64,000 nucleotides of DNA, taken from positions 698 to 64,697 of the forward strand of contig DATNCY010000318.1 in assembly GCA_035553375.1 (NCBI GenBank), in the 5' to 3' direction. The DNA is from Gemmataceae bacterium. Lineage in GTDB: Bacteria; Planctomycetota; Planctomycetia; Gemmatales; Gemmataceae. Below, piece by piece: positions 6,017-55,868 of the stretch. The notes under the pieces were generated by a model. The model made no database searches, had not been told where the DNA came from, and saw only the letters and a program-made list of their open reading frames with translations. Each line of letters opens with the position of its first letter. The first letter of the stretch is position 1. The position numbers were made by a program, and so were the translations under genes.

Positions 6017-6102
6017 CCGCTATCCGCTGTCCGCTATCCGCTGTCCGCCAAACACATAACAGTTTGTTTGGCGGACAGCGGATAGCGGACAGCGGATAGC
6101 GG
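6017..6102. repeat. Periodic-arm hairpin P1: 38-bp perfect stem built from heptamers (TCCGCTA/TCCGCTG)n
   Basis: 6017-6054 is the exact reverse complement of 6065-6102. Lies between the Rieske stop (6013) and the cyt b SD/GTG (6106/6118). Confidence 0.95.
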
Positions 6103-6117
6103 GGTGAGGAGCCAGCC

Positions 6118-6891
6118 GTGTCTGTCGGTGATTTCATTCGTAATTCGCAAGTCTGGAAGAGCATCTTCCGCCACCCGGCCCCGCGCGATCGGCGCAACCG
6201 TGTGGTTGTCATGCTCACCAACGTCTTCCTGCATCTGCATCCGGTGTCGGTGCGCAAGAGCGGTATCGCGCTCAGCTACACCTGGTGCATGGGCGGATTG
6301 ACGTTCTTCATGTTCCTGGAACTGACCGTGACCGGCGTGCTGCTGATGTTTTACTATCGGCCGACGCTCGAACACGCCTACAACGACATCCTCATCCTCC
6401 GCGATGTGGCCACGCTCGGTATCCTCCGCGAGCTGCATCGTTGGGGCGCGCATGCTATGGTCATCACGATCTGGCTGCACATGTATCGCGTCTTCCTCAC
6501 CGGCAGTTACAAGCCACCCAGAGAATTCAATTGGGGGGTCGGCGTCATCTTGCTTGTTTTGACGCTGTTGTTGAGTTTCACCGGCTATTTGCTGCCGTGG
6601 GATCAGCTGGCTATCTGGGCCATCACGGTCGGCAGTAATATGGCCCGCGCTACGCCGTTCCTCGGGCATGAAGGGCCGGGTGCGAGCTTCTTGAAAGTGG
6701 GTGATGTCTCCCTCATCCATTCCGGCTCGGACGCGCGATTCATATTGTTGGGCGGACGCTTCGTGAGCGGCGACACGTTGCTGCGGTTCTACGTGTTGCA
6801 CTGCGTCGCAATTCCGCTCGCTGTCGCCGTGCTGATTGCCGTCCATTTCTGGCGTGTGCGCAAGGACGGCGGCATCAGTGGCCCCCTGTAA
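6118..6891 (+). CDS. Cytochrome b, N-terminal (b6-like) part
   Basis: [38 protein letters not shown] and multiple TM helices. GTG start has GAGGA 7 nt upstream. Confidence 0.85.
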
Positions 6892-6900
6892 AAATGGCAC

Positions 6901-6959
6901 TGCCAGCCCGCAGCGCCGGCAAGGGACATTCGTTCCCTTGCCGGCGCTGCGGGCTGGCA
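6901..6959. repeat. REP-A palindrome copy 1
   Basis: TGCCAGCCCGCAGCGCCGGCAAGGGA / TCCCTTGCCGGCGCTGCGGGCTGGCA: 26-bp perfect arms, 7-nt loop. Lies 10 nt after the cyt b (N) stop. Confidence 0.95.
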
Positions 6960-6994
6960 ATCAATGACAATACTTGTCACCAAGGCGACGAAAC

Positions 6995-8293
6995 ATGGAG
7001 CATACGCTCGACAAAGGTTTGCAAAACGGCCTGGCCTTCTTTTATCTGCTCGTGGCCTTACTCAATTTTGGCTTCGCGGCCTATTGGTATGGGGTCAAGA
7101 AATTGGCCGCAGCCGCCATCTGGGCGGCCGTCGGTGCGCTTTTCTTGATCCATTGTGTTGGTTATTTCGCGCACCTGGGCTGGTCGCTGCCCTTCGGCAT
7201 ACGCGAAGCCGTCGATCAAGCCACCGGGCCGGTCGTCTACACGATGCTCTCCATCGTCGGCTTCATCGTGCTGCTGGTTTTCCGCCGTTTCTTTGTGCAG
7301 CCAAACATCGCCTGGGCACTGCTGCAACTCAGCCTGCTGATTGGCGGATGGGCCATGACCGACCCGAACTTCCGCGACATCGTCGCCAAGGAAGACAACG
7401 TCCCCATCACCATGCTGATTTATTCGGTCGGCTTCTTTACCTGGGCCGCCCTATATCGAGCCGTGCAGAACGATGACCGCATTGCGCGCGGCGAGCCGGT
7501 GTTGGAAAAGGTCGAGGACGAGAAAGTATTGGTCTGGCCGGACCTCGTTTATACCGAACTGATTGCCATGATTATCGCCACGTTCGTGCTGGTAATCTGG
7601 GCCGTGTTGCTCAAGGCGCCGCTCGAACAGCCGGCCACCAGCGCCAAGGCGCCCAACCCATCGAAAGCGCCGTGGTACTTCCTCGGTTTGCAGGAAATGC
7701 TCGTCTATTACGATCCGTGGATGGCCGGTGTCGTGCTGCCGACGATGATTGTCATCGGCCTAATGGCCATTCCCTATATCGACTTCAATCGCCAGGGCAA
7801 CGGCTACTATTCGTTTGCCGAACGTAAGTTTGCCGTGTCGATTTTCCTCTTCGGTTTCGTTGTCCTGTGGGTGACGCTGATTGTGTTGGGCACCTTCTTG
7901 CGTGGTCCAAACTGGAACTTCTTCGGACCATTCGAGTATTGGGATCCGCATAAGGTGCTGCCGCTTAATAACGTCAACCTTTCGCAATTGTTCTGGCTGA
8001 ACATGCTGCATATGCCGCTCGATGATTTCAAGGTTCGTTTCGGCAACTTCCTTGGCCCGATCATTCGGGAGTTGCCCGGCATCATCGTGGTGTTGCTGTA
8101 CCTGTTCGCCCTGCCGCCGCTGCTGGCGCGGACCGTAATGCGACCCTTCTTTGTGCGGATGGGTTTCGTTCGTTTCATCCTGCTGGTGACGTTGATTCAG
8201 TTCATGGCCGCGCTGCCGCTGAAAATGTTGTTGCGCTGGACCCTTAACTTGAAGTACATCGTCGCCATTCCCGAAATCTTCTTCAATATTTAG
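6995..8293 (+). CDS. Cytochrome b C-terminal / subunit IV-like membrane protein with extra TM helices
   Basis: PNPSKAPWYFLGLQEMLVYY matches the PEWYFL-type motif of the cyt b C-terminal domain or PetD. Polytopic. ATG 6995 is in frame with the track start 6974 (TTG). Confidence 0.75.
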   Translation: MEHTLDKGLQNGLAFFYLLVALLNFGFAAYWYGVKKLAAAAIWAAVGALFLIHCVGYFAHLGWSLPFGIREAVDQATGPVVYTMLSIVGFIVLLVFRRFFVQPNIAWALLQLSLLIGGWAMTDPNFRDIVAKEDNVPITMLIYSVGFFTWAALYRAVQNDDRIARGEPVLEKVEDEKVLVWPDLVYTELIAMIIATFVLVIWAVLLKAPLEQPATSAKAPNPSKAPWYFLGLQEMLVYYDPWMAGVVLPTMIVIGLMAIPYIDFNRQGNGYYSFAERKFAVSIFLFGFVVLWVTLIVLGTFLRGPNWNFFGPFEYWDPHKVLPLNNVNLSQLFWLNMLHMPLDDFKVRFGNFLGPIIRELPGIIVVLLYLFALPPLLARTVMRPFFVRMGFVRFILLVTLIQFMAALPLKMLLRWTLNLKYIVAIPEIFFNI

Positions 8294-8302
8294 GGACTTG
8301 CC

Positions 8303-8365
8303 GTTTAGCGACGCTTCGCGGAGGCGTCGGATAATGACAGACGCTTCGCAGAGGCGTCGCTAAAC
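8303..8365. repeat. Composite palindrome between the cyt b C-terminal gene and the cytochrome c gene
   Basis: Outer 12-bp stem GTTTAGCGACGC / GCGTCGCTAAAC encloses two direct copies of the self-complementary GACGCTTCGC(G/A)GAGGCGTC. Confidence 0.9.
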
Positions 8366-8380
8366 AGAATTGGGACGATC

Positions 8381-11300
8381 ATGGCCGCTACCGATCAAAC
8401 CTACCGCAAGCAAAAGACGCTGGATATTGTCTTCGCGGTTTCCTGTATTCTGATGCTGCTAAGCACCTTCTGGATGTTCTGGCAGGATTACGACCGGCAA
8501 TTCAAGCACGTTCAGCGCGACTTCCGCGATGTGGAAGAGGCCATGAACGAGCATCAGATGATCGCGCAATTGCCCTCCAAGGAGGAGGTCGAGGCCAAGC
8601 GGAAGGCGATCGCGGACGCCAAGCAGACTTACGAATCCGAACACGACAAGCTGCGGCCGCGCGAACGCGAGTTGATGGCTTTGCACGATCGCAAGGACAA
8701 CGAATATCGCGGTATCAAGGCTGATTTCGACTCCAAAATGAGTCTCTATAACATCGCCGTCGAACACGTCGGCAAGGAGACCAACGCCGACCTGAAGAAA
8801 GCGCCGCAGAAGGAAGCCGATGACTTGCGGAAAGAACTTTTCGATCCGCAAACGGGGCTGCAAAAGCAACTCACCGACGCTCAGGATGCGCTGGACAAGA
8901 TCGATCAGCAGATCAAGAAAGACGTGACGCAGCCGCTCGATGGGCCGCAACAGGCGGTCAACCAGGCGGAGGACAATCTCAAGAAACTGACAGCGTCGTT
9001 CGATCGCTTGGCCAAGGTGACTTCGCAAAAACGCTGGAAATTCGGCGATCTCTTCCGCACGCTGCCCATTCTCGACGCTTTTGAATCGCCGACCAAGATC
9101 AAACAGCTTTGGCTGCCCGATTTGACCATCGATTACGGTGGATTCAAGGATGTGCCGCGCTACGATCGTTGCATCTCCTGCCACCTCGGTATCGAACGCG
9201 GCAGCTTCGATCACGCCACGCTAACCCGCCTCACCCGCACGCCGGACATCATTTCGGCGGACATCAACAAGGCTCAGGCGCGTAAGAAGGAACTGGAAAG
9301 CAAGGACGGTTCGGAAGAGGACATCAAGCGCGTCGATAACACAATTCAGAAACTTGAAAAAGAGCGCGATCGCGCCAACGGCATGAAGGCTCGGCTCGAT
9401 CAGGCACGCGATATTCTGATGGCGCGGAAGAATGCGGGGGAAAACCTTGGCTTCGATCCGAGCGATTTGCCGGACAAGGTCAAATGGCTGAATATGACGC
9501 CGGGACAAATCACCCAGTACGCCGCCCATCCACGGCTCGATTTGTTCGTCGATGCCAATAGTCCGCATTCGATGGAGAAATTCGGCTGCACCATTTGCCA
9601 TCAGGGACAGGGCAGCGCCACCGATTTCCTGCTGTCCGCACACACGCCGGCCGACGCCAGGCAGGAAGAGGAATGGCACAAGGAGTACGGTTGGGCGCAC
9701 AGTCATTATTGGGATTTCCCTATGCTGTCCAGCCGATTCACCGAGTCGAGCTGTCTCAAATGCCATCACGAAGTAACGGATCTTATTCGTCACGGCAGCA
9801 AGGAAGAAGCGCCCAAGCTGCTGCGCGGCTATAATCTGGTGCGCGAGAACGGCTGCTTCGGCTGTCACGAAATCTCGGCCTTCAAGGCTGGTCGCGAGGT
9901 CGGGCCGGATCTGCGGCTGGAGCCGCAACCGGCGCTGGAGTATTTGACGCCGTCGGAACAGGACAAGGCGAAATCTGATCCGCTCAATCTACCGGGCGCA
10001 TACCGCAAAGTTGGGCCAAGCCTGCGACGCATCGCCGAGAAGACCAATCAGGATTGGGTGCGCAAGTGGATTCAGTCGCCGCGCGGCTTCCGGCCGGATA
10101 CGAAGATGCCGCATTTCTTCGGGCTGAGCAACAACAGCAAGGAGGCGCTGCCGGAGGAGCAGCAGAAGTTCCCCGATGCGGAAATCGCCGGCATCGCCTA
10201 TTACCTGATGGCCGAGAGCAAGGGTAATCTCGAAAGCGATACGACGAAAAAGGACAACGCCCGCAAGGTTCTCGAAAGCCGGATCGCGGATTTGCAGAAA
10301 GTACTCAAGGGCGATCTGCTGCAAGATCGCGATTGGAAGGAACTGACGGATGCGTGCCGCCGTTTGGCCGATCTCGGTTTGATGTCGGTTCCCGCGCAGG
10401 CGAACGAAATCAATCACCTCCTCACTCGGCAGCGGCAGTTGCAAGACCGCATGCAGGAGTTGCGCAAGCGCGAAGCGGCCCTCAAAGCCAAGCCGGAAGC
10501 CGAAGAACTCAGCGCCGACGAAAACAAGGAACTGAGTCAGGCGGGAGGGGAACTCGACAAGGTGACGAAGGATTTGATTGACGCCGGCCAGATTACGCCG
10601 CTGGCGAAACGAATCACCGATGAGGAAGGCAAAACCGTTGATGTGCCCAAGAAGGGCGATGCGGCCAAAGGTCGCAAGCTGTTCACCGAAAAAGGCTGCA
10701 TGGCCTGTCATAGTCACGAAGGCACAACGAAAGCGGGCGATGGCGTCGGCGTGGTGCAGGGCGAGGCGAACTTTGGGCCGAACCTCAGCCGGCTCGCCGC
10801 CAAGATCGCGCCCGAGATCGCCGCCAAGGGCGAGTTGGAAGAGGCGAAACGTCGCTGGATCGTGCAATGGGTGTTGAATCCCACGATCTATCATCCACGG
10901 ACGCGCATGCCCATCACGCATCTGTCGCCGGAAGACGCCGGCAACGTGGCGGAATGGCTGCTGAGCCAAAGGGTGACAGACTGGGAAGACAAGGGACCGG
11001 AAGAGCCGAAGGCGATGGATCTGGTCTCCCTGGCTCGTCTCTATCTCGGCAAGGCACCCGGTTTCACACGGCTGGATGTAGAGAATTTCCTGCCGCCGAA
11101 CACGGGCGAGTTGCCCGGCATCCCGGATGATCGCCTGGGCAACTTGCCGCCCGATTCCGATGAGCGGAAGTTGAACGGCCCGATCAAGGACGACGCGGAA
11201 GGACAGGCGAAACTCAAGTGGTACATCGGCCGCAAAGCTATCAATCGCCTGGGCTGCTTCGGTTGCCACGATGTGCCCGGTTTTGAGACGGCCAAGCCGA

Positions 11301-13129
11301 TCGGCACAGCCCTGAACGATTGGGGCAAGAAGGACGCCGACCGTATTGCGTTTGAGGATGCCGACATCTTCATCCGCGATAACTATAACGTCGTCCCTGT
11401 GCGCAACAATCCCGACGACAAGAGCAAGCCGGCTGCGGACTGGCACGCCAAGGACGGGAAGCAACCTTACGAAAAGCTCTACGCCGAGGCGGTCAATCAC
11501 CATCGGCGCGAGGGGTTCCTGCATCAGAAACTCGTGGAACCGCGCAGTTTCGATTTCCACCGCATTCGCACCTGGGACGATCGGCTACGTATGCCGCAGT
11601 TCCGCTTTGCTCGCACCACGCGACACAAGAACGAAAGCGATGAGGCGTTCCACGCGCGCCAGGAGTTTGAGGAGGCGGAAGCGCGCGAAGCGGTGATGAC
11701 GTTCATCCTCGGTCTGGTCGCCGAGCCGATGCCGCTGAAATATCTCAATCGTCCCGCACCGGATCGCTTGGCCGAAGTCAAGGGACATCAGGTGTTGGAG
11801 AAATTCAACTGCTCCGGTTGTCATCAGATTCGGCCCGGCGTCTACGAGTTCAAGACGAGCGACGAAGGGCTGACGTTCTTGCAGGAAGCCTACAAGTCGA
11901 GCAGCAGCAGTTTCAAGAAAGACCACGTTTTTCCCGGTCATAATGCCTGGGTTGGCGCACCCCAAACATCAGCCGATCGGCTCACGGTGTTTGGCACCCA
12001 TCCCAAGATGGACGATACCTCCTACGAGGATCGCCGAATGTTGGTGGTGCGTCTGACAGATGCCCTGCGTTTCACCGGCACGGATCGCGTAACGCGCAAC
12101 CTGCCGGCGGCCAGCGTGGTACCGATCATCCCCGAAAGCCTGACTGTGCGGGCTGACCCGTGGGGCGGTACCTTCACCGAGTTGATGACCGGGTACATGA
12201 AGCCGCGCGAGGCCGATCCGGACAAGGCGCGGTCGATGCTGCCGCCGCCCTTGATCCGCGAGGGCGAACGGGTGCAACCGAACTGGCTGTATGGCTTCCT
12301 TCTCAATCCGCCGCCGGTTCGCCCGACGAACTACATGATGCTGCGCATGCCGAAGTTCAACATGAGCAGCGAAGATGCTCGCGCTCTGGTGAACTATTTC
12401 AGCGGCGTGTCACGGCTTACCAATCCCGGTTCCGGCGTCACGTCGGAATATGTGGATGTTCATCAGCACGATGAAGCCTACTGGCAGGCCCGTACCCGCG
12501 AATACATCAAGCGGCTCAAGGGCGACAAGAAGTACGACGAGCGCGTCAAGCAGATGGAACCCGTGTGGCAGGACGCGCTCAAACGGCAAATCGCCGAGGC
12601 CGAGGCCGGCTTGGACGCGGCGAAACAAGCCGTCAAGGACGCCCCGGAAGGCGAGCCGCGCAAGCAGAAACAGCAGGATGTGGACGCTCGCGAGGCCAAC
12701 ATCAAGAAGTGGAAAGAGGAACTCGACAAGAAGAATTACGACCGCCTGCGCAAGCATTGGGATGAAAAGGGAGCCTATGCCAGCGATGCGTATCGTCTGG
12801 TGACGGATCGCAATCTGTGCTTGCAGTGTCACAGCGTCGGCGATGTGTCGGCGGCCTTGCCGCAGGGACCGAACCTGGATCTGACGGCGCAGCGATTGCG
12901 GCCGGAGTGGGTTCGGCAGTGGATCGCCAATCCGGATCGTTTGTTCGGCTACAAACCGGCCATGCCGCAGAATTTCCCCAACGATTCGCTAGAATATCAA
13001 AATGTCTTTCTCGGCAGACCGCTCGATCAGGTGACTGCCGTGCGTGATGTTTTGATGGCTTTGCCGCGCGTGGCCGACATGCCGGGCAATCGCTCGCGGG
13101 CGCCCGTCGCGGCCGGAGGAACCAAGTGA
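8381..13129 (+). CDS. Very large membrane-anchored multihaem c-type cytochrome (eight CXXCH motifs) with coiled-coil-like Lys/Glu-rich segments
   Basis: N-terminal TM helix. CXXCH motifs read directly: CISCH, CTICH, CLKCH, CFGCH, CMACH, CFGCH, CSGCH, CLQCH. Lies immediately downstream of the Rieske and cyt b genes. Confidence 0.85.
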   Translation: MAATDQTYRKQKTLDIVFAVSCILMLLSTFWMFWQDYDRQFKHVQRDFRDVEEAMNEHQMIAQLPSKEEVEAKRKAIADAKQTYESEHDKLRPRERELMALHDRKDNEYRGIKADFDSKMSLYNIAVEHVGKETNADLKKAPQKEADDLRKELFDPQTGLQKQLTDAQDALDKIDQQIKKDVTQPLDGPQQAVNQAEDNLKKLTASFDRLAKVTSQKRWKFGDLFRTLPILDAFESPTKIKQLWLPDLTIDYGGFKDVPRYDRCISCHLGIERGSFDHATLTRLTRTPDIISADINKAQARKKELESKDGSEEDIKRVDNTIQKLEKERDRANGMKARLDQARDILMARKNAGENLGFDPSDLPDKVKWLNMTPGQITQYAAHPRLDLFVDANSPHSMEKFGCTICHQGQGSATDFLLSAHTPADARQEEEWHKEYGWAHSHYWDFPMLSSRFTESSCLKCHHEVTDLIRHGSKEEAPKLLRGYNLVRENGCFGCHEISAFKAGREVGPDLRLEPQPALEYLTPSEQDKAKSDPLNLPGAYRKVGPSLRRIAEKTNQDWVRKWIQSPRGFRPDTKMPHFFGLSNNSKEALPEEQQKFPDAEIAGIAYYLMAESKGNLESDTTKKDNARKVLESRIADLQKVLKGDLLQDRDWKELTDACRRLADLGLMSVPAQANEINHLLTRQRQLQDRMQELRKREAALKAKPEAEELSADENKELSQAGGELDKVTKDLIDAGQITPLAKRITDEEGKTVDVPKKGDAAKGRKLFTEKGCMACHSHEGTTKAGDGVGVVQGEANFGPNLSRLAAKIAPEIAAKGELEEAKRRWIVQWVLNPTIYHPRTRMPITHLSPEDAGNVAEWLLSQRVTDWEDKGPEEPKAMDLVSLARLYLGKAPGFTRLDVENFLPPNTGELPGIPDDRLGNLPPDSDERKLNGPIKDDAEGQAKLKWYIGRKAINRLGCFGCHDVPGFETAKPIGTALNDWGKKDADRIAFEDADIFIRDNYNVVPVRNNPDDKSKPAADWHAKDGKQPYEKLYAEAVNHHRREGFLHQKLVEPRSFDFHRIRTWDDRLRMPQFRFARTTRHKNESDEAFHARQEFEEAEAREAVMTFILGLVAEPMPLKYLNRPAPDRLAEVKGHQVLEKFNCSGCHQIRPGVYEFKTSDEGLTFLQEAYKSSSSSFKKDHVFPGHNAWVGAPQTSADRLTVFGTHPKMDDTSYEDRRMLVVRLTDALRFTGTDRVTRNLPAASVVPIIPESLTVRADPWGGTFTELMTGYMKPREADPDKARSMLPPPLIREGERVQPNWLYGFLLNPPPVRPTNYMMLRMPKFNMSSEDARALVNYFSGVSRLTNPGSGVTSEYVDVHQHDEAYWQARTREYIKRLKGDKKYDERVKQMEPVWQDALKRQIAEAEAGLDAAKQAVKDAPEGEPRKQKQQDVDAREANIKKWKEELDKKNYDRLRKHWDEKGAYASDAYRLVTDRNLCLQCHSVGDVSAALPQGPNLDLTAQRLRPEWVRQWIANPDRLFGYKPAMPQNFPNDSLEYQNVFLGRPLDQVTAVRDVLMALPRVADMPGNRSRAPVAAGGTK

Positions 13130-13923: not shown

Positions 13924-13941
13924 TTGTGAAGTCACGGTTTT

Positions 13942-13992
13942 ACCAGCCCGCAGCGCCAGTAAGGGAATTCCTTGCTGGCGTCGCGGGCTGGT
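13942..13992. repeat. REP-A palindrome copy 2 (slightly degenerate)
   Basis: ACCAGCCCGCAGCGCCAGTAAGGGA ... CCTTGCTGGCGTCGCGGGCTGGT, 19 nt after the stop at 13923. Confidence 0.9.
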
Positions 13993-14018
13993 AAACCATT
14001 TATGCAACCTGGAGGTAT

Positions 14019-14984: not shown

Positions 14985-14998
14985 GTTGCGAGTAGGCT

Positions 14999-15063
14999 CC
15001 GACAAGCCCAGAGCGCCAGCGACGGGATGAAGAACCCCGTCGCTGGCGCTCTGGGCTTGTCGG
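14999..15063. repeat. REP-A variant (GCGCCAGCGACGGG core), 28-bp perfect arms
   Basis: CCGACAAGCCCAGAGCGCCAGCGACGGG / CCCGTCGCTGGCGCTCTGGGCTTGTCGG, between convergent stops 14984 and 15076. Confidence 0.95.
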
Positions 15064-15075
15064 GCATGAGATCGT

Positions 15076-16749: not shown

Positions 16750-16899
16750 GGTATCTCTTGTGAGCCGGTGGATCAAATCATATAGCCCCCAGCTTGCTGG
16801 GGACGCGATCTGCCCCCCCGGCAAGCCGGGGGCTATATGTACGCAATGATACCCAATCGACGCTCGTTTGTCAGGGACAGCCGGCCGCGAGAAGATCAT

Positions 16900-17661: not shown

Positions 17662-17687
17662 GCGGACCTCCTTGTCCTGGCTGGGGA

Positions 17688-17750
17688 GAGCTTAGTATCG
17701 TTTACGTTTCGCCGACACGGATTTGGCGAAACGTAAACGATATTAGGCTC
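17688..17750. repeat. REP-C palindrome copy 1 (GTTTACGTTTCGC core)
   Basis: ATCGTTTACGTTTCGCC / GGCGAAACGTAAACGAT 17-bp arms, in the divergent kdsB-alaS intergenic region. Confidence 0.9.
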
Positions 17751-17893
17751 TCGCCGGGCGTTTGCCGAACTCCGACACCAGATTAGACCTTCCCTCGGTC
17801 CGGCTGACAAGACCGCTCGGCGTTGACGGCGGCAGCGTTAGGTTGGAGAATAATCGAACTCTGTTCACTGAGGACGTTTATCGAGAAGCATTC

Positions 17894-20611: not shown

Positions 20612-20668
20612 ACCAGCCCGCAGCGCCAGCAAGGGAAACCCATCCCCTTGCTGGCGCTGCGGGCTGGT
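20612..20668. repeat. REP-A palindrome copy 3
   Basis: 24-bp arms ACCAGCCCGCAGCGCCAGCAAGGG / CCCTTGCTGGCGCTGCGGGCTGGT, between convergent alaS (stop 20608) and the gene ending at 20675. Confidence 0.95.
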
Positions 20669-22064: not shown

Positions 22065-22180
22065 AATTAACCACAGAGACACAGAGGCACAGAGGAACGA
22101 CATAAAAAAATGGGCGAGCAGAGGCTTTCACCAACCACTCACCCATTTTGTATTTTCTTCTCTGTGTCTCTGTGGTTATT
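22065..22180. repeat. Periodic-arm hairpin P2: arms built from 8-nt units (CACAGAGA/CACAGAGG)
   Basis: The left arm AACCACAGAGACACAGAGGCACAGAGGAA...AAAAAAATGGG pairs imperfectly with the right arm CCCATTTTGTATTTTCTTCTCTGTGTCTCTGTGGTT. The left arm carries one extra unit. Confidence 0.85.
22104..22146 (-). terminator. Putative intrinsic terminator for the minus-strand operon ending at 22176
   Basis: On the minus strand a 9-bp stem (ATGGGTGAG/CTCGCCCAT, one G-U) with a 19-nt loop is followed by a run of six T. It is embedded in the centre of hairpin P2. Confidence 0.5.
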
Positions 22181-23600
22181 TCTTCTTCTTATCCTTCGGC
22201 GGCGTCGCCGGCTCCGCCCCCGGCGGCAGTAGCGACTTGAGCAGTTGCCCATTCGTGCCGTTGTACACACGCACGATGCCCTCTTGACCGCCGGCGGCGA
22301 CGAGAGCGCCGTCGGGGCTGACGCCCAGCGCGTAGAGGAAATCGGTGTTGCCGCTGAAATTACGTGTGTTGCCGCCGTTAACATTCCAGAAACGCACCGT
22401 CTGATCGCCGCTACAGGTGGCGAACTGATCGGTTTTGCCGACGAACACCAGGCGCGTCACCTGTTTGCCGTGGCCGGTGATCGTGCGAACCTGCTCGCCC
22501 TTCTCGAAATCCCAGATTTTGACGACATTATCCGCGCCGGCCGAGGCCAGCAATTTGCCATCAGCCTTCCAACCCACGCCAAGAACGTGGTGCGTGTGCC
22601 CCTCGAACGCCTTGAGGAACTTGCCGCTCGGCACCTCGAACGTCTTGACGAATTTGTCGGCCGCACAGGTGGCCAGCTTTTTGTCGTCCGGGCTAAAGCG
22701 GACACCGAAGACGGTGTCGCTATGGCCGTTCTTGATGTCCGCGACCAATTTGCCGGTGGCGACCTCGAAAATCTTGATCTCGCCGTCCGCCGTCGGCGCT
22801 CCGCCGCCGGTGGCCAGCAGCTTGCCGTCGTGCGAGAAGTCCAGGGCAACGACGCGATCGGCGAAGCCGGTCAGACGCCGGCGAATCGCGCCCGTCTGCG
22901 CGTCCCACACCAGGACTTCCTGGAAAGCGCCCGAGGCGAGGGATTTACCATCGGGACTGTAAGCGAGCGATTCAACGATCGACAGGTGCGCGGCCTTGAC
23001 GGGTTTCTTGTCCGGCCCGGTCAATTGTGGATCGACCAGGGTGCGAATATGCGCGCCCGAAGCGGCATTGTAGATGTGGATCTGGTTGCTTCGTGAGGCG
23101 GCGACGCTGGTCTTGTCGGGGCTGACAGCGATGCCCAGCACCGGATGTACGTTGGCGGGCGGGCCGCTGACGATCACCTTGGGCCGTTCACGCCGCATGG
23201 TCGGCGCCTTGGCACCCTGGTCAATCCACAACTTGATAAGAGCCAACTCTTCGGGAGTCAGCGGTTTCTCGCCCTTGGGCGGCATGAATTTTTTCTGTGT
23301 CTTGCTGGCCAGTTTGATGAGCAGGCTCTCGCCCGACTTGGCGGGCACGATCGCCGCACCGTGCTTGCCGCCCTTCATGAGCGCTTCGTAGTTGCCCATG
23401 TCGAGCTTGCCTTCCTTGATGTTGTCGCTGTGACAGTAGGCGCATTTATCGACGAGGATCGGCTCAATGTCCTTATCGTACAGCACCGGCGTGGCGCGTT
23501 TCAGTTCGACGACCTTGATCGGCTCGACGCCTTTCTTCTCCTCGGCGACGACAAGCGCCGGTACGAGAACGATGAGACAAAACGAAAGCAGGCAACGCAT
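22176..23600 (-). CDS. PSCyt1-type cytochrome c domain fused to WD40 beta-propeller
   Basis: Signal peptide. CAYCHSDNIKEGKLDMGNYEALMKGG plus LALIKLWIDQGA (planctomycete cytochrome C domain), then repeated WD40-like units (GHxxxV...S.D.k.latg...d..vkiwd). AGGAG lies 8 nt upstream of ATG 23600. Confidence 0.8.
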   Translation of the reverse strand: MRCLLSFCLIVLVPALVVAEEKKGVEPIKVVELKRATPVLYDKDIEPILVDKCAYCHSDNIKEGKLDMGNYEALMKGGKHGAAIVPAKSGESLLIKLASKTQKKFMPPKGEKPLTPEELALIKLWIDQGAKAPTMRRERPKVIVSGPPANVHPVLGIAVSPDKTSVAASRSNQIHIYNAASGAHIRTLVDPQLTGPDKKPVKAAHLSIVESLAYSPDGKSLASGAFQEVLVWDAQTGAIRRRLTGFADRVVALDFSHDGKLLATGGGAPTADGEIKIFEVATGKLVADIKNGHSDTVFGVRFSPDDKKLATCAADKFVKTFEVPSGKFLKAFEGHTHHVLGVGWKADGKLLASAGADNVVKIWDFEKGEQVRTITGHGKQVTRLVFVGKTDQFATCSGDQTVRFWNVNGGNTRNFSGNTDFLYALGVSPDGALVAAGGQEGIVRVYNGTNGQLLKSLLPPGAEPATPPKDKKKK

Positions 23601-23624
23601 GCGGGTATCTCCTTCATTCGCCTT

Positions 23625-23698
23625 GTGTAGCCGTGACACGCAGCGGAGCGCGCGTTTACGTTTCGCGCGAAGCGCTCCGCCGCGCATCGCGGCTACAC
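23625..23698. repeat. REP-C related element copy 2
   Basis: CAGCGGAGCGCGCGTTTACGTTTCGCGCGAAGCGCTCCGC, flanked by GTGTAGCCG / CGGCTACAC. Lies between the stop at 23709 and the start at 23600 of two minus-strand genes. Confidence 0.85.
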
Positions 23699-29305: not shown

Positions 29306-29353
29306 CCAGCCCGCAGCGCCAGCAAGGGTTCCCTTGCTGGCGCTGCGGGCTGG
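29306..29353. repeat. REP-A palindrome copy 4
   Basis: 23-bp perfect arms CCAGCCCGCAGCGCCAGCAAGGG / CCCTTGCTGGCGCTGCGGGCTGG, 4 nt after the metK stop. Confidence 0.95.
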
Positions 29354-31886: not shown

Positions 31887-31937
31887 GCCAGCCCGCAGCG
31901 CCAGCAAGGGATTCCCTTGCTAGCGCTGCGGGCTGGC
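31887..31937. repeat. REP-A palindrome copy 5
   Basis: GCCAGCCCGCAGCGCCAGCAAGGG / CCCTTGCTAGCGCTGCGGGCTGGC (one mismatch), 12 nt after the stop at 31875. Confidence 0.95.
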
Positions 31938-33432: not shown

Positions 33433-33478
33433 GCCCGGAGCGCCAGCGACGGGATAACCCGTCGCTGGCGCTCCGGGC
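33433..33478. repeat. REP-A variant (GCGCCAGCGACGGG core)
   Basis: GCCCGGAGCGCCAGCGACGGG ATAA CCCGTCGCTGGCGCTCCGGGC, between the coaD stop (33482) and the kinase start (33381). Confidence 0.95.
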
Positions 33479-35115: not shown

Positions 35116-35163
35116 GTGAGGGATTGTAAAGGGATTGGCTCGACTTGGCGAAGCCAATTTACT

Positions 35164-35252
35164 CCCCTCTCCCCCGTACTCGGGGGAGAGGGGTCGGGGG
35201 GAAGTCTCGCCCCTCACCCCCAACCCTCTCCCCCGAGTACAGGGGAGAGGGG
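35164..35252. repeat. GGGGAGAGGGG-type double palindrome
   Basis: CCCCTCTCCCCC GTACTC GGGGGAGAGGGG, then TCGGGGGG...CCCCTCACCCCC, then CCCTCTCCCCCGAGTACAGGGGAGAGGGG. Lies in the divergent region 35116-35339. Confidence 0.9.
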
Positions 35253-35339
35253 AATAGGATCGGATTGCCCTTGCCTAGCGAGCGTGAGGCTTCGACAATC
35301 AGCAGCGAGTGATCGATCTTTCTTTCAGGAGTTGCCGCC

Positions 35340-36150: not shown

Positions 36151-36205
36151 CCAACCCGCAGCGCCAGCAAGGGTTTTCATTTCCCTTGCTGGCGCTGCGG
36201 GCTGG
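36151..36205. repeat. REP-A palindrome copy 6
   Basis: CCAACCCGCAGCGCCAGCAAGGG / CCCTTGCTGGCGCTGCGGGCTGG (one mismatch), between convergent stops 36140 and 36210. Confidence 0.95.
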
Positions 36206-41083: not shown

Positions 41084-41111
41084 GGTTCCATCCACGCGGC
41101 GTGATTTCACA

Positions 41112-41200
41112 ACAAGCAAGGAGCGCAAGCGACGGGTCGAAAACCCGTCGCTTGCGCTCCGGGCTTGTTTGATCCCGTCGCTTGCGCTCCGGGCTTGTTT
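41112..41200. repeat. REP-A variant with an extra duplicated right arm
   Basis: ACAAGCAAGGAGCGCAAGCGACGGG / CCCGTCGCTTGCGCTCCGGGCTTGT (41112-41168), plus a second copy of CCCGTCGCTTGCGCTCCGGGCTTGTTT at 41174-41200. Lies between the rsfS stop and the argS start. Confidence 0.9.
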
Positions 41201-41691: not shown

Positions 41692-41993
41692 CTCCGGACC
41701 GGATCAAGCCAGTCCCCTACACGGAAAACACACAACCGAGAGCTATCCGCTCTCCGTGGGATGCCGAACCGCCGTTCGGTCGGACCATCCCATCTCTCTT
41801 ATCATCCAGCCTCCTGCCACCGTCGTCAAGCATCTCCTGCTCAAATTGCGCGTTTCACGGGTATCGATTGAGACTACTGTACTAATTATAGCGACCCAGA
41901 CAGTCCCCTCGGAACTTTTCCCACTCTTTTGTCTTCCTTTAACCAGACAAACGCCAGCCTGCGAGGTTCGCCAGCTGATGAATTTGCTTGTTG

Positions 41994-42060
41994 GCGAGCC
42001 TCCCGCGTGAGCGGGGGGAGTTTTCACGGCATTCTCCCCCCGCTCACGCGGGAGGCTCGC
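41994..42060. repeat. Single-copy perfect palindrome, 27-bp arms
   Basis: GCGAGCCTCCCGCGTGAGCGGGGGGAG / CTCCCCCCGCTCACGCGGGAGGCTCGC with a 13-nt loop. Confidence 0.95.
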
Positions 42061-42194
42061 CATTTGTTAGCGCCTCCGAGGAAATGCTCTGGCACTGGCA
42101 CGGTCTCGCCGCTATAGTCCGCCGCGCTTTGGGAGTTGGCCGCAAGCACGTTCTCGTTTCGTCGTGCAAACCGTGTCTTGATCAGTCCGTGGTT

Positions 42195-42229
42195 CCGGCA
42201 AGGGTTCCCTTGTTGGCGTCGTGGGCTAG
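42195..42229. repeat. Degenerate REP-A remnant (centre plus right arm)
   Basis: CCGGCAAGGGTTCCCTTGTTGGCGTCGTGGGCTAG retains the AAGGG/CCCTTG centre and a diverged right arm. Confidence 0.6.
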
Positions 42230-42258
42230 TAACCCCTTTCCAGGAACAGAGGGAGATT

Positions 42259-43185: not shown

Positions 43186-43194
43186 TTGGTCTCA

Positions 43195-43260
43195 CAGCGG
43201 AGCGCCGGTTTACGTTTCGCGAAACATAAACCCGCGCTCCGCTGCGCGTCGCAGCTACAC
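43195..43260. repeat. REP-C related element copy 3
   Basis: CAGCGGAGCGCCGGTTTACGTTTCGCGAAACATAAACCCGCGCTCCGCTG is a near-perfect palindrome, followed by CGCGTCGCAGCTACAC. Lies between convergent stops 43185 and 43267. Confidence 0.9.
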
Positions 43261-43266
43261 AATGCT

Positions 43267-51724: not shown

Positions 51725-52330
51725 TCAGGAGTAGGCGGCGACAAGCATGCTTCCCGGTCGCGCCTCGACCTTGGTGATCCACTCCCCAACTTCGTCCAGC
51801 ATCTCCTCGAACCCGTCCTCTCCGTGCGGCCCGGCTGCTCGCATGGCCCGGAACGCCGGTGCCGCCGCCCTCACCTCAGCCCCCGTCCAGTGGCCAAGCG
51901 ATGACCCGAATGGGTTTTCCGGAAGTGGGACCGGCGAGCGGCCGACCAACCCGTTCCAGAACCGCAGTTCAACCCCGTGCGCTGCGAACAACTCGTCCAG
52001 TTGAGTGACCAGTTCTGTGCTGCAGCGATGGAAGTGATTCTGGACCCACTGGCCGAACGAACTGCACACATGCTCGAAGGCGTTCTTGTACACGAACCCC
52101 GCGTCCGGCCGAGTCACCTGGCCCGCGAATATATCCCGCAGGGCGTCAGCGTGGGTGAAACCCGGGCACCAATCCTCCATCAGGTCTTCCATCTCTTCGT
52201 CGAGCCAGGTGAGCGACTCTCCCTGTCCCTCCTGCTCCAACAATTCCTCCAGGAGGTCGGCGTCGTTGGAGCCGGGGACGGCCTTCACCTCGGCCTCATC
52301 CACGAGGTAGACCATCATTCCCATGCTCAT
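51725..52330 (-). CDS. Hypothetical acidic protein
   Basis: GGAGGG lies 8 nt upstream of ATG 52330. Sequence is non-repetitive. No family recognised. Confidence 0.4.
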   Translation of the reverse strand: MSMGMMVYLVDEAEVKAVPGSNDADLLEELLEQEGQGESLTWLDEEMEDLMEDWCPGFTHADALRDIFAGQVTRPDAGFVYKNAFEHVCSSFGQWVQNHFHRCSTELVTQLDELFAAHGVELRFWNGLVGRSPVPLPENPFGSSLGHWTGAEVRAAAPAFRAMRAAGPHGEDGFEEMLDEVGEWITKVEARPGSMLVAAYS

Positions 52331-52973
52331 CCGAGTACCCTCCGCTCCCTTCACCGAACTTGTTACTTGAGCGCGCCCCTAAATAAGTGCTTGTGCCCCA
52401 CCCTCATACGGATAGTTCAACTCCACGGCACCAGGCTGTCAACGGCAATCTCAACCAGCACCGCCGTCTTTCTTCCACTTTCCTCCCGCCCATTCACGGC
52501 CTTTTTCATCTCCCTGTCATCGAAAGAATCCGGTATCTGAGAAGGAATCTTCTCGCTGCCGGCTGTCGCGCAGCACCATCGCTTCATCAACCGCTATCTC
52601 GCCACGGCCGGCCACCTGAGGGCAGACAAAAGGCTCGTCTTTTTGGTAAACTAACCCTCGCGTGTCGTAAAGGAGGCGAGCCATGAAGTCGGATGCGGTC
52701 CAGATCGAGGGTATGGTGCAACCTACTTCGGGCATGACGCTGACGGATTAGTTCTGGGCGGGAATGCAGGCCATTTGGGCCGGTCAAGCTGCTCGTGGTC
52801 ATGTGCCGCGCGAAAAAGCCCAGATTGACGCCGAGATTAAGGCGTTACGGGACGAGGCGGAGGAAGAAATGCAACAGGTGGAACGCCTCCACGAAGAGGC
52901 GAGTTCGGAGTCTTGAAGGCTGCTTTGCGGGAATCGCCGCCGATGATCCTAACGTGAATACCGAGGCGTCTTC

Positions 52974-53726
52974 ATGTGTCTGCTGGCCTTATTCTACCGC
53001 GTGGTCGAAGATGCCCCCGTGGTGGCTGGGGCCAATCGCGAAGAATACTACCAGCGCGGCGGCGAACCGCCGCGTCTGCTCGATGATGGCCCTATCCGCG
53101 CCGTGGCCGGTATCGATCCCGTGGCCGGGGGGACGTGGTTCGGGGTCAACGACAAGAATGTATTCGTAGCCGTCACCAACCGGCGCAAGTCCGACACACC
53201 TCCTCAGCCACGCAGCCGGGGTTTGCTGGCACGCGAATTACTAACCTGTACCTCCGCGAAAGCCGCCGTCGATCGCGCCATCCGCGAACTGGAACAGAAT
53301 CGTTACGCCGGCTGCAACTTCCTGTGCGCCGATGCCAGCCGTGCCGTCGTCATTCAAGCGGGCGACTGGCTGCGCGTGCGGCCGTTGCCGCCGGGGCTGC
53401 ATGTGCTGACCAACCGCGATGTCAATGATGCCAGCGATCATCGGCTGAGTTATGCCCTCGATTGGCTCAGCCGGCATTCGTACTCGACGGCGGAGCAGTG
53501 CGTGCAAGCGCTGCAACAATTATGCGCCCAACATGAGCCGAACGATCCGCCGATGTGCTTTCGCGCCAAGGATCGCGGCACGGTTTCCAGTTCCATCGTG
53601 GCCTTGCGCGGCCGGCTGGAAGACAGCACCTATCTCCATGCTCAGGGGCCGCCCGACCAGACGCCCTACGTGGCCTATTCGCACTTGCTTCACGACTTGA
53701 CCAATGACCACAATAGCGGATCGTAA
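52974..53726 (+). CDS. NRDE family protein (TANGO2 homologue)
   Basis: MCLLALFYRV N-terminus (Cys2), GANREEYYQRGG (NRDE motif), AGGTWFGVN, FVAVTNRR and SRGLL. Confidence 0.75.
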   Translation: MCLLALFYRVVEDAPVVAGANREEYYQRGGEPPRLLDDGPIRAVAGIDPVAGGTWFGVNDKNVFVAVTNRRKSDTPPQPRSRGLLARELLTCTSAKAAVDRAIRELEQNRYAGCNFLCADASRAVVIQAGDWLRVRPLPPGLHVLTNRDVNDASDHRLSYALDWLSRHSYSTAEQCVQALQQLCAQHEPNDPPMCFRAKDRGTVSSSIVALRGRLEDSTYLHAQGPPDQTPYVAYSHLLHDLTNDHNSGS

Positions 53727-53768
53727 AAGGCACTCTTGCGATTCACCGTAACAAGGCAGGCACCTGTC

Positions 53769-55127
53769 ATGGGGAAAACATTGATCCCTCCCGGTCCCAA
53801 GGGGCATTTCCTCAGCGGTCATCTGCCGGAGATGCGCCGCGATTTGCTCGGTTTCTACTTGCGCTGCGCCCGCGAATACGGCGATTGCACCACGCTGCGC
53901 TTTGGACTGCGGCGCATCTTCTTCGTCAATCACCCCACGTTCATCGAGCAAGTCCTGCACAGCCGTAATTTCACCAAACACTACGCCCTGCGCATGAATC
54001 GGCTGCTGCTGGGCAATGGCTTGCTGACCAGCGAGGGCGATTTCTGGCTGCGGCAACGCCGGCTCATTCAGCCGGTCTTTCAGCGCGAGCGCATCGTATC
54101 CTACGCCGCCGACATGGTTGCTTTCACCCAGCGACAACTCGCCTCGTGGCACGATGGCGAGGTGCGCGACCTGCACGCCGAGATGCGAAAGCTGACGCTG
54201 GCCATCGCTTCCAAGAGTCTGTTCGGTGCCGACGTGACCGGCCAATCCGAGGCGGTCGGTCAGGCGCTTCACGATGCGATGGGCACCTTCAGCCAGCGTT
54301 TCTTCCGTGTCTTCCGCATTCCGGAGCGCATTCCGACCCCGGAAAACCTGCGGATTCGCCGCGCTATTCGCCGACTGGATGCAATCCTCTACGGCCTCAT
54401 CAATCAACGCCGCGCTGAAGGCGAGAAAAACGATCTACTATCGATCTTGTTGCACGCGCGACACGAGAGCGACGGCACCGGCATGACCGATCAGCAACTG
54501 CGCGACGAGGCCATGACGCTTTTTCTGGCCGGCCACGAAACCACGGCCCTGGCGCTTTCCTGGGGCTGGTATTTGCTGGCGCAGCATCCGGAGGTGGTCG
54601 AAGAACTGCAAACGGAACTGCATCAAGTGCTTGGCGGGCGTCCGCCGACCGTCGCCGATTTGCCAAACCTGCGCTATACCGAGATGGTCGTGCAAGAAGT
54701 GATGCGGGTTTATCCGCCCGCGTATGCGATTGGCCGCCAGGCTATCCAGGCTTGTACGATCAACGGGTATCCCGTGCCGGCGGGCGGAACGGTACTCATG
54801 AGTCAGTGGGTGGTCCATCGCGATCCGCGCTTTTTCGATGATCCGGAGCGCTTTTATCCGGGACGTTGGGCGGATGGCCTGGCGCGCCGCTTGCCCCGTT
54901 ACGCTTACTTCCCCTTCGGCGGCGGACAGCGGCTGTGCATCGGCAACACCTTCGCCCTGATGGAATTGTCCCTAGTATTGGCGACGATTGCCCAGAGTTT
55001 CCATTTCGCGTTGACTCCCGGCTTGGTGGTTGGTCTGCGGCCTCAGTTGACTCTGCAACCGGATCGCCCCATCCTGCTGAAACTGCAAAGGAGGAATGCA
55101 CAATGCACAATGCACAATGCACAATGA
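53769..55127 (+). CDS. Cytochrome P450
   Basis: Haem-thiolate loop FPFGGGQRLCIGNTFA, I-helix LFLAGHETTA, ExxR (EVMR), PERF-like PERFYPGRW. ATG 53769 is preferred over TTG 53736. Confidence 0.9.
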   Translation: MGKTLIPPGPKGHFLSGHLPEMRRDLLGFYLRCAREYGDCTTLRFGLRRIFFVNHPTFIEQVLHSRNFTKHYALRMNRLLLGNGLLTSEGDFWLRQRRLIQPVFQRERIVSYAADMVAFTQRQLASWHDGEVRDLHAEMRKLTLAIASKSLFGADVTGQSEAVGQALHDAMGTFSQRFFRVFRIPERIPTPENLRIRRAIRRLDAILYGLINQRRAEGEKNDLLSILLHARHESDGTGMTDQQLRDEAMTLFLAGHETTALALSWGWYLLAQHPEVVEELQTELHQVLGGRPPTVADLPNLRYTEMVVQEVMRVYPPAYAIGRQAIQACTINGYPVPAGGTVLMSQWVVHRDPRFFDDPERFYPGRWADGLARRLPRYAYFPFGGGQRLCIGNTFALMELSLVLATIAQSFHFALTPGLVVGLRPQLTLQPDRPILLKLQRRNAQCTMHNAQ

Positions 55128-55174
55128 AAGCTCATTGTCTTTTATTCTGCATTCTGCATTCTGACTTCTGCATT
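55095..55174. repeat. Periodic element P4: (AATGCAC)x4 facing (ATTCTGC)-type heptamers
   Basis: 55095-55126 holds four exact heptamers and overlaps the last 10 codons and the stop of the P450 gene. 55144-55174 reads ATTCTGC ATTCTGC ATTCTGA CTTCTGC. The two arrays are complementary at 6 of 7 positions per unit. An inner 6-bp hairpin is CAATGA aagc TCATTG. Confidence 0.9.
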
Positions 55175-55178
55175 AAGA

Positions 55179-55868
55179 ATGTATCCACACCGCATTCGCT
55201 TGCGTGCCCCCTGGGGATGTGAACGCCTACCCGCTGGACTGCCGAATGCGGACAGCGGACAGCGGACAGCGGATTGCGGACTGCCGACTGCCGACTGCGG
55301 CCGTCGCTTCCGCCGGCGTTTTGGCTATCCCGGACGCATTGATGCGTATGAGCGTGTCTGGTTGACGTTCGTGGGCGTCGCCGGCGCGGTGGAAGTGTGG
55401 CTCAACGATGTCGCCTTGGGACGGCGAAACGAAGCATCCGGAGCGTTCGAGTTCGAGGTGACGCCGTTGTTGCGGCCCCGCAACGAGTTGGTCGTTGACG
55501 TGGAAGGAACGGCGGAACAAGGTGTATGGGATGAGGTCGCTCTGGAAGTTCGCTGTACGGCGTTCTTGCGCGGCCTGTCCTGGTTCGCGATAAAAAAAGG
55601 AGAGCGGGCGGAGTTGCATGTTACCGGTCAGGTGGTCGGCGTGGCCGAACGGCCGCTCGAACTATACATCGTGTTGGATCGCTCCGTCGTCGCCTATCAA
55701 GTGGTGACGGCGACGACCGAAGGGCAACCGTTTGAGATTGTCGTGCCGGACCTGGCGGTGGAAGACGGCGGTTCAGTGGTCAAAGTCGATCTGGTGAATG
55801 GGGCATCGGTCTGGTACACCAATGAGGGAACCGTGACGTTGGAGTCAAGATCGAGCTTAGGTGGATGA
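55179..55868 (+). CDS. Hypothetical protein with GH2 sugar-binding-like jelly-roll N-domain, carrying an in-frame heptanucleotide-repeat insertion
   Basis: IRLRAPW ... RRFGYPGRIDAYERVWLTFVGVAGAVEVWLNDVALG ... FEFEVTPLL resembles the GH2 N-terminal domain pattern. Residues 20-41 are encoded by the 7-nt repeat at 55236-55298. Confidence 0.45.
   Translation: MYPHRIRLRAPWGCERLPAGLPNADSGQRTADCGLPTADCGRRFRRRFGYPGRIDAYERVWLTFVGVAGAVEVWLNDVALGRRNEASGAFEFEVTPLLRPRNELVVDVEGTAEQGVWDEVALEVRCTAFLRGLSWFAIKKGERAELHVTGQVVGVAERPLELYIVLDRSVVAYQVVTATTEGQPFEIVVPDLAVEDGGSVVKVDLVNGASVWYTNEGTVTLESRSSLGG
55236..55298. repeat. Periodic element P5: nine tandem heptamers (GGACAGC consensus) inside a coding frame
   Basis: GGACTGC CGAATGC GGACAGC GGACAGC GGACAGC GGATTGC GGACTGC CGACTGC CGACTGC. 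Shares the AGCGGAC/AGCGGAT unit with the right arm of P1. Confidence 0.95.

Follow-up and report, generated by a model that had tools for sequence, protein, structure and literature searches.

Stem-forming arrays of 7- to 9-nucleotide units, a widespread class of repeats in bacterial genomes and viral contigs

Stem-forming arrays of 7- to 9-nucleotide (nt) units are a distinct and widespread class of repeats. We analysed five loci with such units, P1 to P5, in 64 kb of DNA from a Gemmataceae bacterium (Planctomycetota; assembly GCA_035553375.1, contig DATNCY010000318.1, positions 698 to 64,697), hereafter the window, and compared them with loci of relatives, genomes of other phyla and viral contigs. 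A heptamer-biased repeat process is active in many bacterial phyla and in phages, and about a third to half of the arrays exist as inverted pairs, i.e., next to a complementary array with which they can form a stem. The pairs accumulate where inserts are tolerated: in spacers between a stop codon and a ribosome-binding site, between convergent genes and, if the unit is free of stop codons, in frame within variable loops of proteins. Close relatives differ in these pairs: at one and the same orthologous slot, pairs have come and gone or have given way to unrelated hairpins. With moderate confidence, we interpret P1 to P5 as palindromic microsatellites that resemble repetitive extragenic palindromic (REP) sequences, i.e., as elements that would be made by slippage, kept where tolerated and transcribed into 3' stem-loops.

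Results

Arrays of 7- to 9-nt units in the window

Our read of the source genome is the window, which encodes ~44 genes. These were called with a self-trained codon model that was checked against the called genes of a relative (L124). The sequences used for comparison are mostly metagenome-assembled genomes (MAGs), two JGI contigs were compared through their gene tables, and gene starts are approximate. A preliminary description, made from the sequence alone, had reported five elements built from tandem 7-, 8- or 9-nt units in a planctomycete-type genome. Tandem Repeats Finder recovered all five, with arrays of period 7-9 at 6014-6102 (P1), 22072-22174 (P2), 50227-50340 (P3), 55095-55174 (P4) and 55236-55300 (P5). 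The taxonomic attribution is borne out by one window protein with an identical counterpart in a Gemmataceae MAG; cytochrome b, for its part, is 90-96% identical to proteins on Gemmataceae-type contigs.

The five elements were described as a single architectural class, and composition-matched shuffles were named as the yardstick for their frequency. In our own scan the window contained eight arrays of period 7-9 with at least three copies, whereas the mean over 100 dinucleotide-preserving shuffles was 0.35 and no shuffle had more than three, which places the class far above chance. Four of the five loci (P1 to P4) are inverted pairs, and P5 is unpaired. The units are shared only pairwise: P1 and P5 have AGCGGAY in common, and P2 and P3 can be aligned with each other as ACC-(CRCRGAR..)n, both as previously noted. 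The latter alignment also unites them with the hairpins of two relatives (L123 and L126), which belong to the same unit family.

Spread across phyla and viral contigs

A scan for GCGGAYWGCGGAYWGCGGAYWGCGG, with one genome per species, showed that arrays of the (GCGGAYW)n type are present in at least 120 genome stretches (867 kb in total; all counts are lower bounds), where about 0.1 would be expected by chance according to a rough estimate. Among the matches listed, the array-bearing taxa include Acidobacteriota, Verrucomicrobiota, Planctomycetota, Gemmatimonadota, Chloroflexota, Bacteroidota, Streptomyces and others, and arrays are also carried by isolate genomes (Streptomyces, Kitasatospora) and long-read assemblies. 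These 867 kb encode at least 373 arrays of period 6-10, of which 320 have period 7. About 200 of the 373 are made of units other than the one searched, most of them seen once or twice among the matches listed. On the same basis, 117 arrays (31%) have a complementary array within 200 nt, vs. two of 373 in a control that used the reversed but not complemented unit.

Loci that had been selected by their proteins (711 kb) provided a sample unbiased with respect to repeats, with shuffles as expectation. This sample contained 51 arrays of period 7 (3.8 in shuffles), 24 of them inverted; nine of period 8 (0.2 in shuffles), four inverted; eight of period 9 (0.2 in shuffles), two inverted; 20 of period 6 (2.6 in shuffles), none inverted; and four of period 12 (0.0 in shuffles), none inverted. 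Among the well-represented periods, inverted pairs were therefore restricted to 7-9 nt.

In IMG/VR viral contigs we found 44 array stretches, and in some of them a dozen heptamer arrays lie within 13 kb. Three of these contigs, L219 (UViG_3300047160_011294), L233 and L237, have 8-16 mostly heptamer arrays per 9-14 kb, including a GATTGCG array of 25 copies, and one of the three shares its metagenome with Gemmataceae relatives of the window. The suggestion of a planctomycete peculiarity, or of a dedicated genome-wide system, does not survive these results, since the same architecture, and even units of the AGCGGAY type, are found in many phyla and in viral contigs.

The chance that the five elements are unrelated coincidences or assembly artefacts is negligible. 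The sources are mostly metagenome assemblies, and contigs sometimes break in the repeats, e.g., contig L001 within P3. Yet the count of arrays in the window far exceeds its expectation, P3 is reproduced exactly by an independent assembly, isolate genomes and long-read assemblies carry arrays too, and some arrays lie in frame in variable loops of otherwise conserved proteins.

Three hairpins at stop codons

P1 (6014-6102, forward strand) is made of 4.7 copies of TCCGCT[A/G] and 4.6 copies of the complement GCGGA[C/T]A. The 5' arm, (TCCGCTR)n at 6017-6054, and the 3' arm, (GCGGAYA)n at 6065-6102, have 38 nt each, are 100% complementary and enclose a loop of 10 nt (6055-6064); even a 14-nt alternation is mirrored in the stem. 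The 5' arm is the C-rich one. The predicted RNA fold has -86.7 kcal/mol (z -15.5). P1 spans the whole spacer from the stop codon of the Rieske gene (6011-6013) to the Shine-Dalgarno (SD) sequence and GTG start of the cytochrome b gene (6118; identifications by Pfam); it adjoins the stop codon directly (0 nt) and ends 15 nt short of the start codon. It is missing from the relatives L122-L124, where the spacer between the two genes has only ~9-50 nt and no hairpin, and is thus lineage-specific. These genes are part of an operon (5285-13129) for a complex of Rieske protein, split cytochrome b and multihaem cytochrome c (1582 aa), the gene order of which is kept in relatives while the hairpin content varies in every intergenic spacer.

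P3 (50216-50351, forward strand) has three CACGGAAAR units per arm. The arms (50216-50262 and 50305-50351) have 47 nt, are 98% complementary and enclose an AT-rich loop of 42 nt (RNA fold -76.8 kcal/mol, z -14.5). Like P1, it fills a spacer, here between the stop codon of a 7TM-transglutaminase gene (50214-50216) and the GGAGG/ATG of an ATP-grasp gene (50364; Pfam), with 0 nt to the stop and 12 nt to the start. No sigma-70-like promoter was detected within P3 by the promoter scan. An independent short-read contig (L001, positions 1-140, corresponding to 50225-50364 of the window) starts exactly inside the 5' arm, which implies that such hairpins break assemblies.

P2 (22068-22178, reverse strand) overlaps the stop codon of a WD40 gene (22176-23687, reverse strand). 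On the sense strand it has two CACAGAGR units in the 5' arm and three in the 3' arm, which are thus unequal by one unit; the outer stem is perfect over 19 bp, and the RNA fold has -58.1 kcal/mol (z -8.3). The outer arms enclose a terminator-like hairpin (22107-22149, reverse strand; AAAAUGGGUGAG...CUCGCCCAUUUUUUU) that, according to the sequence and its minimum free energy structure, consists of a GC stem followed by U7. It is the only feature resembling a canonical intrinsic terminator among P1 to P5. This inner hairpin has a G.U pair on the transcribed strand, which corresponds to C.A on the opposite one. The lone mismatch between the arms of P3 is also G.U on the transcribed strand, as is the single mismatch of P2. 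Scans of the window for promoter and terminator consensus sequences gave no more matches than in shuffles, and the sole match of Rfam 15 at gathering score in the window is a tRNA (61581-61669).

The gene contexts agree with the earlier remark that the elements abut stop codons, SD sequences or coding frames. Such tight geometry, which in other phyla takes the form of a median gap of ~3 nt between stop codon and hairpin, might be expected of a selected intercistronic RNA device. A ribosome terminating on the first cistron would melt the 5' arm, which would free the 3' arm and the leader of the next cistron and thereby couple the two; alternatively, a G-first polarity would hide a C-rich arm on which Rho could load within operons. 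The position of P1 and P3 within conserved operons (Rieske-cytochrome b and transglutaminase-ATP-grasp) fits this idea. On the other hand, a narrow tolerated window would give equally tight geometry, and the same operons have a spacer of 7-25 nt and no hairpin in most relatives. We regard such a device as unlikely, and return to it with the arm order.

Turnover at orthologous slots

The slot that follows cytochrome b is occupied in the window by a REP-like hairpin, in L122 by a different GC-rich hairpin, in L123 by a hairpin of CACAGAGG arrays, which have the unit of P2, and in L124 by an (AAATCCG)n/(CGGATTT)n hairpin. Among 78 further metagenome relatives, 16 have a long hairpin within 25 nt of the cytochrome b stop codon. 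Ten of the 16 are built from arrays, with units as different as GGTGGAT, GGAATTW, ACAATTT, GGTTTCT, CGTTCGT, CGCRGAGAR and others, while many of the remaining relatives have only a short spacer with an SD sequence. The slot is thus reused, its content interchangeable and the hairpin dispensable. L122 also encodes, at 1247-1484, ~26 copies of GCTGATA with a short inverted (TATCAGC)x3 partner upstream, by a wide margin the longest array in the Gemmataceae-type loci. The sites of P3 and P4 are nearly empty in a syntenic relative as well: the former is a gap of only 13 nt, and at the latter a P450 of 446 aa is followed by a gap of 7 nt.

P4 (55095-55174, forward strand) illustrates how a hairpin decays. 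It consists of 4.6 copies of AATGCAC facing 4.4 copies of CTGCATT, which are complementary at six of seven positions, with one C.C mismatch per unit (RNA fold -32.3 kcal/mol, z -3.6). The first array encodes the last ~10 residues and the stop codon of a P450 gene (53736-55127); the second ends 4 nt upstream of the next start codon (55179). In the orthologous element of L205 and L206 the 5' arm is AATGCAG and pairs perfectly with CTGCATT. The homogenisation of the 5' arm to AATGCAC in the window has destroyed the pairing of P4, without obvious consequence, which speaks against a selected coupling device. The two relatives are near-identical strains, and one arm of the element is longer by exactly one 7-nt unit in one strain than in the other. 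Arrays thus change by whole units inside a single arm, and slippage, one of the origins initially considered, is clearly active. The perfect hairpins P1 and P3 are probably young or recently corrected.

Gain and loss at orthologous sites, and the replacement of one hairpin by unrelated ones in a single slot, would also be expected of non-autonomous elements similar to miniature inverted-repeat transposable elements (MITEs) or foldback elements. Arrays of heptameric sites would then serve as their terminal inverted repeats, to be bound and mobilised by a protein encoded elsewhere in the genome. A mobile element was indeed among the initial candidates, and the recurrence of one unit family at separate loci (P1 and P5; P2, P3, L123 and L126), the several GCGGATT arrays on single contigs and a REP-like behaviour that extends to insertion into uvrA can be cited in its favour. 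However, these "family" copies have in common the unit, not the loop, the length or the flanks, and the single-unit indels show that the arrays evolve in situ. There is no transposase or REP-associated tyrosine transposase (RAYT; IS200/IS605-like) domain among the ~44 genes of the window, all of which appear to be housekeeping genes, and no target-site duplication was seen by eye at P1 or P3. We consider this explanation unlikely.

Arrays translated within genes

P5 (55236-55300, forward strand) is an array of 9.3 heptamers (GCGGACA/GGACTGC type) that lacks a partner. It is translated in frame, as ...LPNADSGQRTADCGLPTADCG..., in an N-terminal variable loop of a GH2_N-like protein (55179-55868). 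Its RNA fold (-33.8 kcal/mol, z -1.3) is indistinguishable from that of shuffles. In the alignment this loop is hypervariable: most homologues have a native loop of ~35 residues, and peptides encoded by arrays (ADSGQRT, PLSAIR) are found only in the window and in the closest homologues. In L205 the corresponding hairpin is complete and in frame, (TGTCCGC)n...(GACAGCG)n. Because 7 and 3 have no common factor, a heptamer array encodes the same seven-residue repeat in all frames, and stop-free units can be tolerated within genes. Conserved proteins of other phyla have in-frame arrays too. In a verrucomicrobial UvrA, an array (L020, 6996-7024) encodes the peptide KSAVRNPQSAN, which lies in a variable loop according to solved UvrA structures. 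We also observed a pair of in-frame arrays between the DFG and GTPxYMSPE motifs of a Ser/Thr kinase (L033, 1176-1277).

Arm order and preferred units

A palindrome made of an arm, a loop and the reverse complement of the arm is identical on both strands, and the order of its arms is therefore independent of the strand. Arm order was for this reason rejected as a clue to the transcribed strand. In the multi-phylum loci, the G-rich arm came first in 54 of 56 array hairpins (33:1 within the family of the searched unit, 21:1 among the remaining units). Ordinary perfect hairpins of these loci were evenly split (23:21), and the Gemmataceae-type loci were mixed (7:10). On the sense strand, arrays beside stop codons were (GCGGAUU)n rather than the complement in 38:9 cases, and those beside start codons were (AAUCCGC)n in 30:7. 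Genes bracketed by arrays in the 5' and 3' UTRs that could pair with each other were few.

The confinement of the 54:2 polarity to array hairpins and the preferences beside stop and start codons both suit the intercistronic device outlined above. Other observations do not: P1 itself is C-first, the Gemmataceae-type loci are mixed, and coupling is meaningless for the 13 of 46 hairpins that lie between convergent genes. Selection on the RNA should also leave an excess of G.U over A.C mismatches on the transcribed strand. We counted these within the arms only, because whole 170-nt segments are confounded by coding sequence. G.U exceeded A.C after cytochrome b (28:12), which favours the device, whereas there was no such bias in the larger multi-phylum set (30:26). 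Orthologous hairpins retain their stems while the loops vary, again as the device would predict, but pairs of them had essentially no informative double changes when examined for covariation. As for MITE-like elements, a defined terminal inverted repeat would give a fixed arm order, but there are hundreds of unrelated units, and the G-first rule applies to units without a relationship, beyond what common descent can explain.

Arrays can be made of any heptamer, but there is a 5- to 16-fold preference for GGATTGC in IMG/VR, where exact (GCGGATT)3.5 arrays occur in 32 stretches and three permuted units in 2, 6 and 3. This preference, and the GGA present in many units, could point to binding sites for a sequence-specific protein, e.g., a global regulator as proposed for Geobacter, sigma-54, CsrA (through GGA motifs) or cold-shock proteins (one per heptamer), and regulator sites have been proposed for related repeats (PMC2700814, PMC4679880, 10.1101/2022.06.06.494920). 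Yet most units are found once or twice, the sites are base-paired in the hairpins, and arrays also occur within coding regions and in phages. The sigma-54 version, in which GGATTGC arrays regenerate GG-N8-TTGC, was rejected: the sigma-54-like strand beside start codons faces away from the gene, and the other GGxTTGC units are at background (GGCTTGC in 2 IMG/VR stretches and GGTTTGC in 3). Sites for a sequence-specific protein, also among the initial candidates, are thus very unlikely as a general account of units this diverse.

The post-stop niche and other hairpins

The window encodes ~27 long hairpins, ~20 of which begin 0-26 nt past a stop codon. These include P1 to P3 as well as REP-like families, i.e., the tandem-unit hairpins share the post-stop niche with ordinary REP-like hairpins and are a minority among the ~20. 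The largest family (A, arm CCAGCCCGCAGCGCCAGCAAGGG) has seven copies, at 6901-6959, 13939-13995, 20612-20668, 29306-29353, 31887-31937, 36151-36205 and 48495-48548. They start 3-15 nt after stop codons and have perfect stems of 13-26 bp within imperfect arms of 23-26 nt. CAGC recurs in the arm at a 7-nt and then a 6-nt spacing, so that family A may be a degenerate array. Family B (CCCGTCGCTGGCGCTCYGGGC) is found at 14999-15063, 33433-33478 and 41111-41199; the last copy includes a 30-nt tandem duplication that creates alternative hairpins between the RsfS stop codon and the ArgRS start codon. Both families have the many dispersed copies that characterise REPs.

In other phyla, 31 array hairpins lie between co-directional genes, 13 between convergent and two between divergent ones. 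The divergent number is to be compared with 9.6 expected from intergenic length (p = 0.003) or 6.3 by number (p = 0.08). Half of the arrays (189 of 381) are outside called genes, compared with 18% of non-coding sequence, and many of the "genic" calls are 5' over-extensions of open reading frames (ORFs). This location matches that of REPs, which are found downstream of ORFs, between unidirectional or convergent genes (PMC3733652).

The window has further repeats and long palindromes. At 1885-2041 there are 2.4 tandem copies of a palindromic 66-nt unit (GTCCGGCTCGGCTCGCCGGAC...GTGCCGCGAGCCGAGCGGCAC), flanked by a Ser/Thr kinase gene (640-1863) and by a small ORF convergent with it. Nested GGGGAGAGGGG repeats lie upstream of an M50 peptidase gene (35160-35256), a pair of hairpins (17683-17755 and 43195-43244) has GTTTACGTTTCG in common, a perfect stem of 29 bp is found at 41992-42062, and a nested double hairpin follows the ATP-grasp gene (51368-51460).

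Discussion

In the explanation that we favour, arrays would arise by replication slippage, and the mirror arm would be made, or kept in step, by hairpin-templated intramolecular copying or by inverted duplication. Such copying would account for the perfect and probably young P1 and P3 alongside the decaying P2, P4 and P5. Selection would purge most arrays and leave those that follow stop codons, lie between convergent genes or sit in tolerant protein loops. Where intergenic arrays are transcribed, they would end a cistron on its 3' side with very stable stem-loops and might act in the manner of REPs, as barriers to 3' exonucleases, weak terminators or attenuators, and possibly as substrates of RNase III. 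The hairpins would be tolerated or mildly useful rather than essential.

Several points weigh against this explanation. The copying step that would keep the 38-bp stem of P1 perfect is itself inferred. Pure slippage explains neither the G-first polarity, nor the preference for GGATTGC, nor the recurrence of one unit (GCGGATT) at several loci of single contigs. At the RNA level, the mismatch counts are suggestive at best. Finally, intrinsic terminators have a GC-rich stem of ~5-15 bp with a U-tract directly behind it; only P2 has such a tract, and the 38- and 47-bp stems of P1 and P3 lack it.

These same regularities raise the possibility, which we consider unlikely, that self-complementary heptamer arrays are a distinct pan-bacterial element class with rules of its own: G-first polarity, the placement of (GCGGAUU)n behind stop codons and of (AAUCCGC)n ahead of start codons, and GGATTGC as the preferred unit across unrelated phyla and phages. 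If so, the rules would point either to a conserved function, such as the shielding of a C-rich Rho-loading arm or the coupling of cistrons, or to a propagation of palindromes by hairpin-templated synthesis that is independent of transposases.

The closest analogy initially drawn was with the short tandemly repeated repetitive (STRR) sequences of heterocystous cyanobacteria. STRRs are tandem heptanucleotides with many copies per genome, mostly non-coding and of unknown function, and have been described as direct arrays, not as stem-forming inverted pairs. The analogy is fair, as P1 and P4 are tandem heptanucleotide arrays in non-coding DNA (P5 is coding). However, the elements studied here belong to another phylum, their units (TCCGCTR, CACAGAGR, CACGGAAAR, AATGCAC and GCGGACA) differ from canonical ones such as CCCCAGT, and those of P2 and P3 have 8 and 9 nt.

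An excess of long heptanucleotide simple sequence repeats (SSRs) in bacteria was reported in 2007, as cited in PMC4692102. Our arrays resemble heptanucleotide SSRs, including GGGAATC of Xanthomonas and GGGGAYT of Nostoc, in their bias for period 7, their intergenic enrichment and their variation in length and sequence between close relatives. The tandem 7-nt excess, the non-coding enrichment and the whole-unit changes in copy number place them within that category, with P2 (8 nt) and P3 (9 nt) as near-neighbours. Unlike in these repeats, inverted pairing is here quantified (31-44% of arrays), the units do not form G-quadruplexes and the positions are tied to stop and start codons.

The preliminary description knew of no inverted, stem-forming versions, but there are precedents. 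The paper on GGGAATC in Xanthomonas gives one inverted pair as an example (PMC4692102). In Geobacter metallireducens, four to five tandem units of 7-8 nt are "mostly found in pairs", often on opposite strands, in inter- and intragenic positions and in tens of copies (PMC2700814). They were read as sites of a global regulator or as regulatory RNAs in that one genome, and the link to stop codons, the turnover and the other phyla are not described there. The TAACTGA repeats of Beggiatoaceae, cyanobacteria and Bacteroidetes likewise show that a heptamer array can be common to distant phyla. They are mostly intergenic, often end at a start codon, are found in ORFs only in the stop-free orientation and are mixed with other heptamers (PMC4679880). 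In contrast to our arrays, nearly all of them are direct, with one inverted set in 170; the unit is different and its forward orientation carries stop codons (PMC4679880).

With REPs, REPINs and BIMEs (PMC3733652; PMC3116915) our hairpins share the location after ORFs, the plausible RNA hairpins and the patchy distribution among relatives; REPs are even found occasionally in frame within genes such as uvrA (PMC3733652). REPs are, however, scattered copies of a single sequence of 20-40 bp that bears a GTAG or CGTC tag, and are often linked to a RAYT, whereas the arms described here are internally periodic, have locus-specific units and change by whole units, with no RAYT in the window. Rickettsia palindromic elements (RPEs), mentioned in PMC3733652, are inserted in frame into genes and translated, but they are longer, consist of one sequence in scattered copies, without tandem substructure, and are confined to Rickettsia. 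Arrays in the taxa covered here (Gemmataceae, Acidobacteriota, Verrucomicrobiota and others) are absent from the literature that could be searched. In the searchable literature we found neither a quantified link between periods 7-9 and inverted pairing, nor the equivalence with REP slots, nor the polarity rule, nor the cross-phylum GGATTGC and AGCGGAY units, nor any description in Planctomycetota.

More than 30 years after heptamer repeats were first noticed in bacteria, neither an origin nor a function has found acceptance. Our results add three testable regularities: among well-represented periods, inverted pairing occurs only at 7-9 nt; the inverted pairs share the post-stop slot of REPs and take their place in relatives; and a strict arm order and a favoured unit recur in many phyla. 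In practical terms, the arrays break assemblies and extend ORF calls. If the regularities are functional, the operons of soil and aquatic phyla would have a widespread architectural layer that is absent from annotations. If they are mutational, they would point to heptamer-specific slippage and palindrome copying, a process that would also write new peptide loops into proteins such as UvrA.

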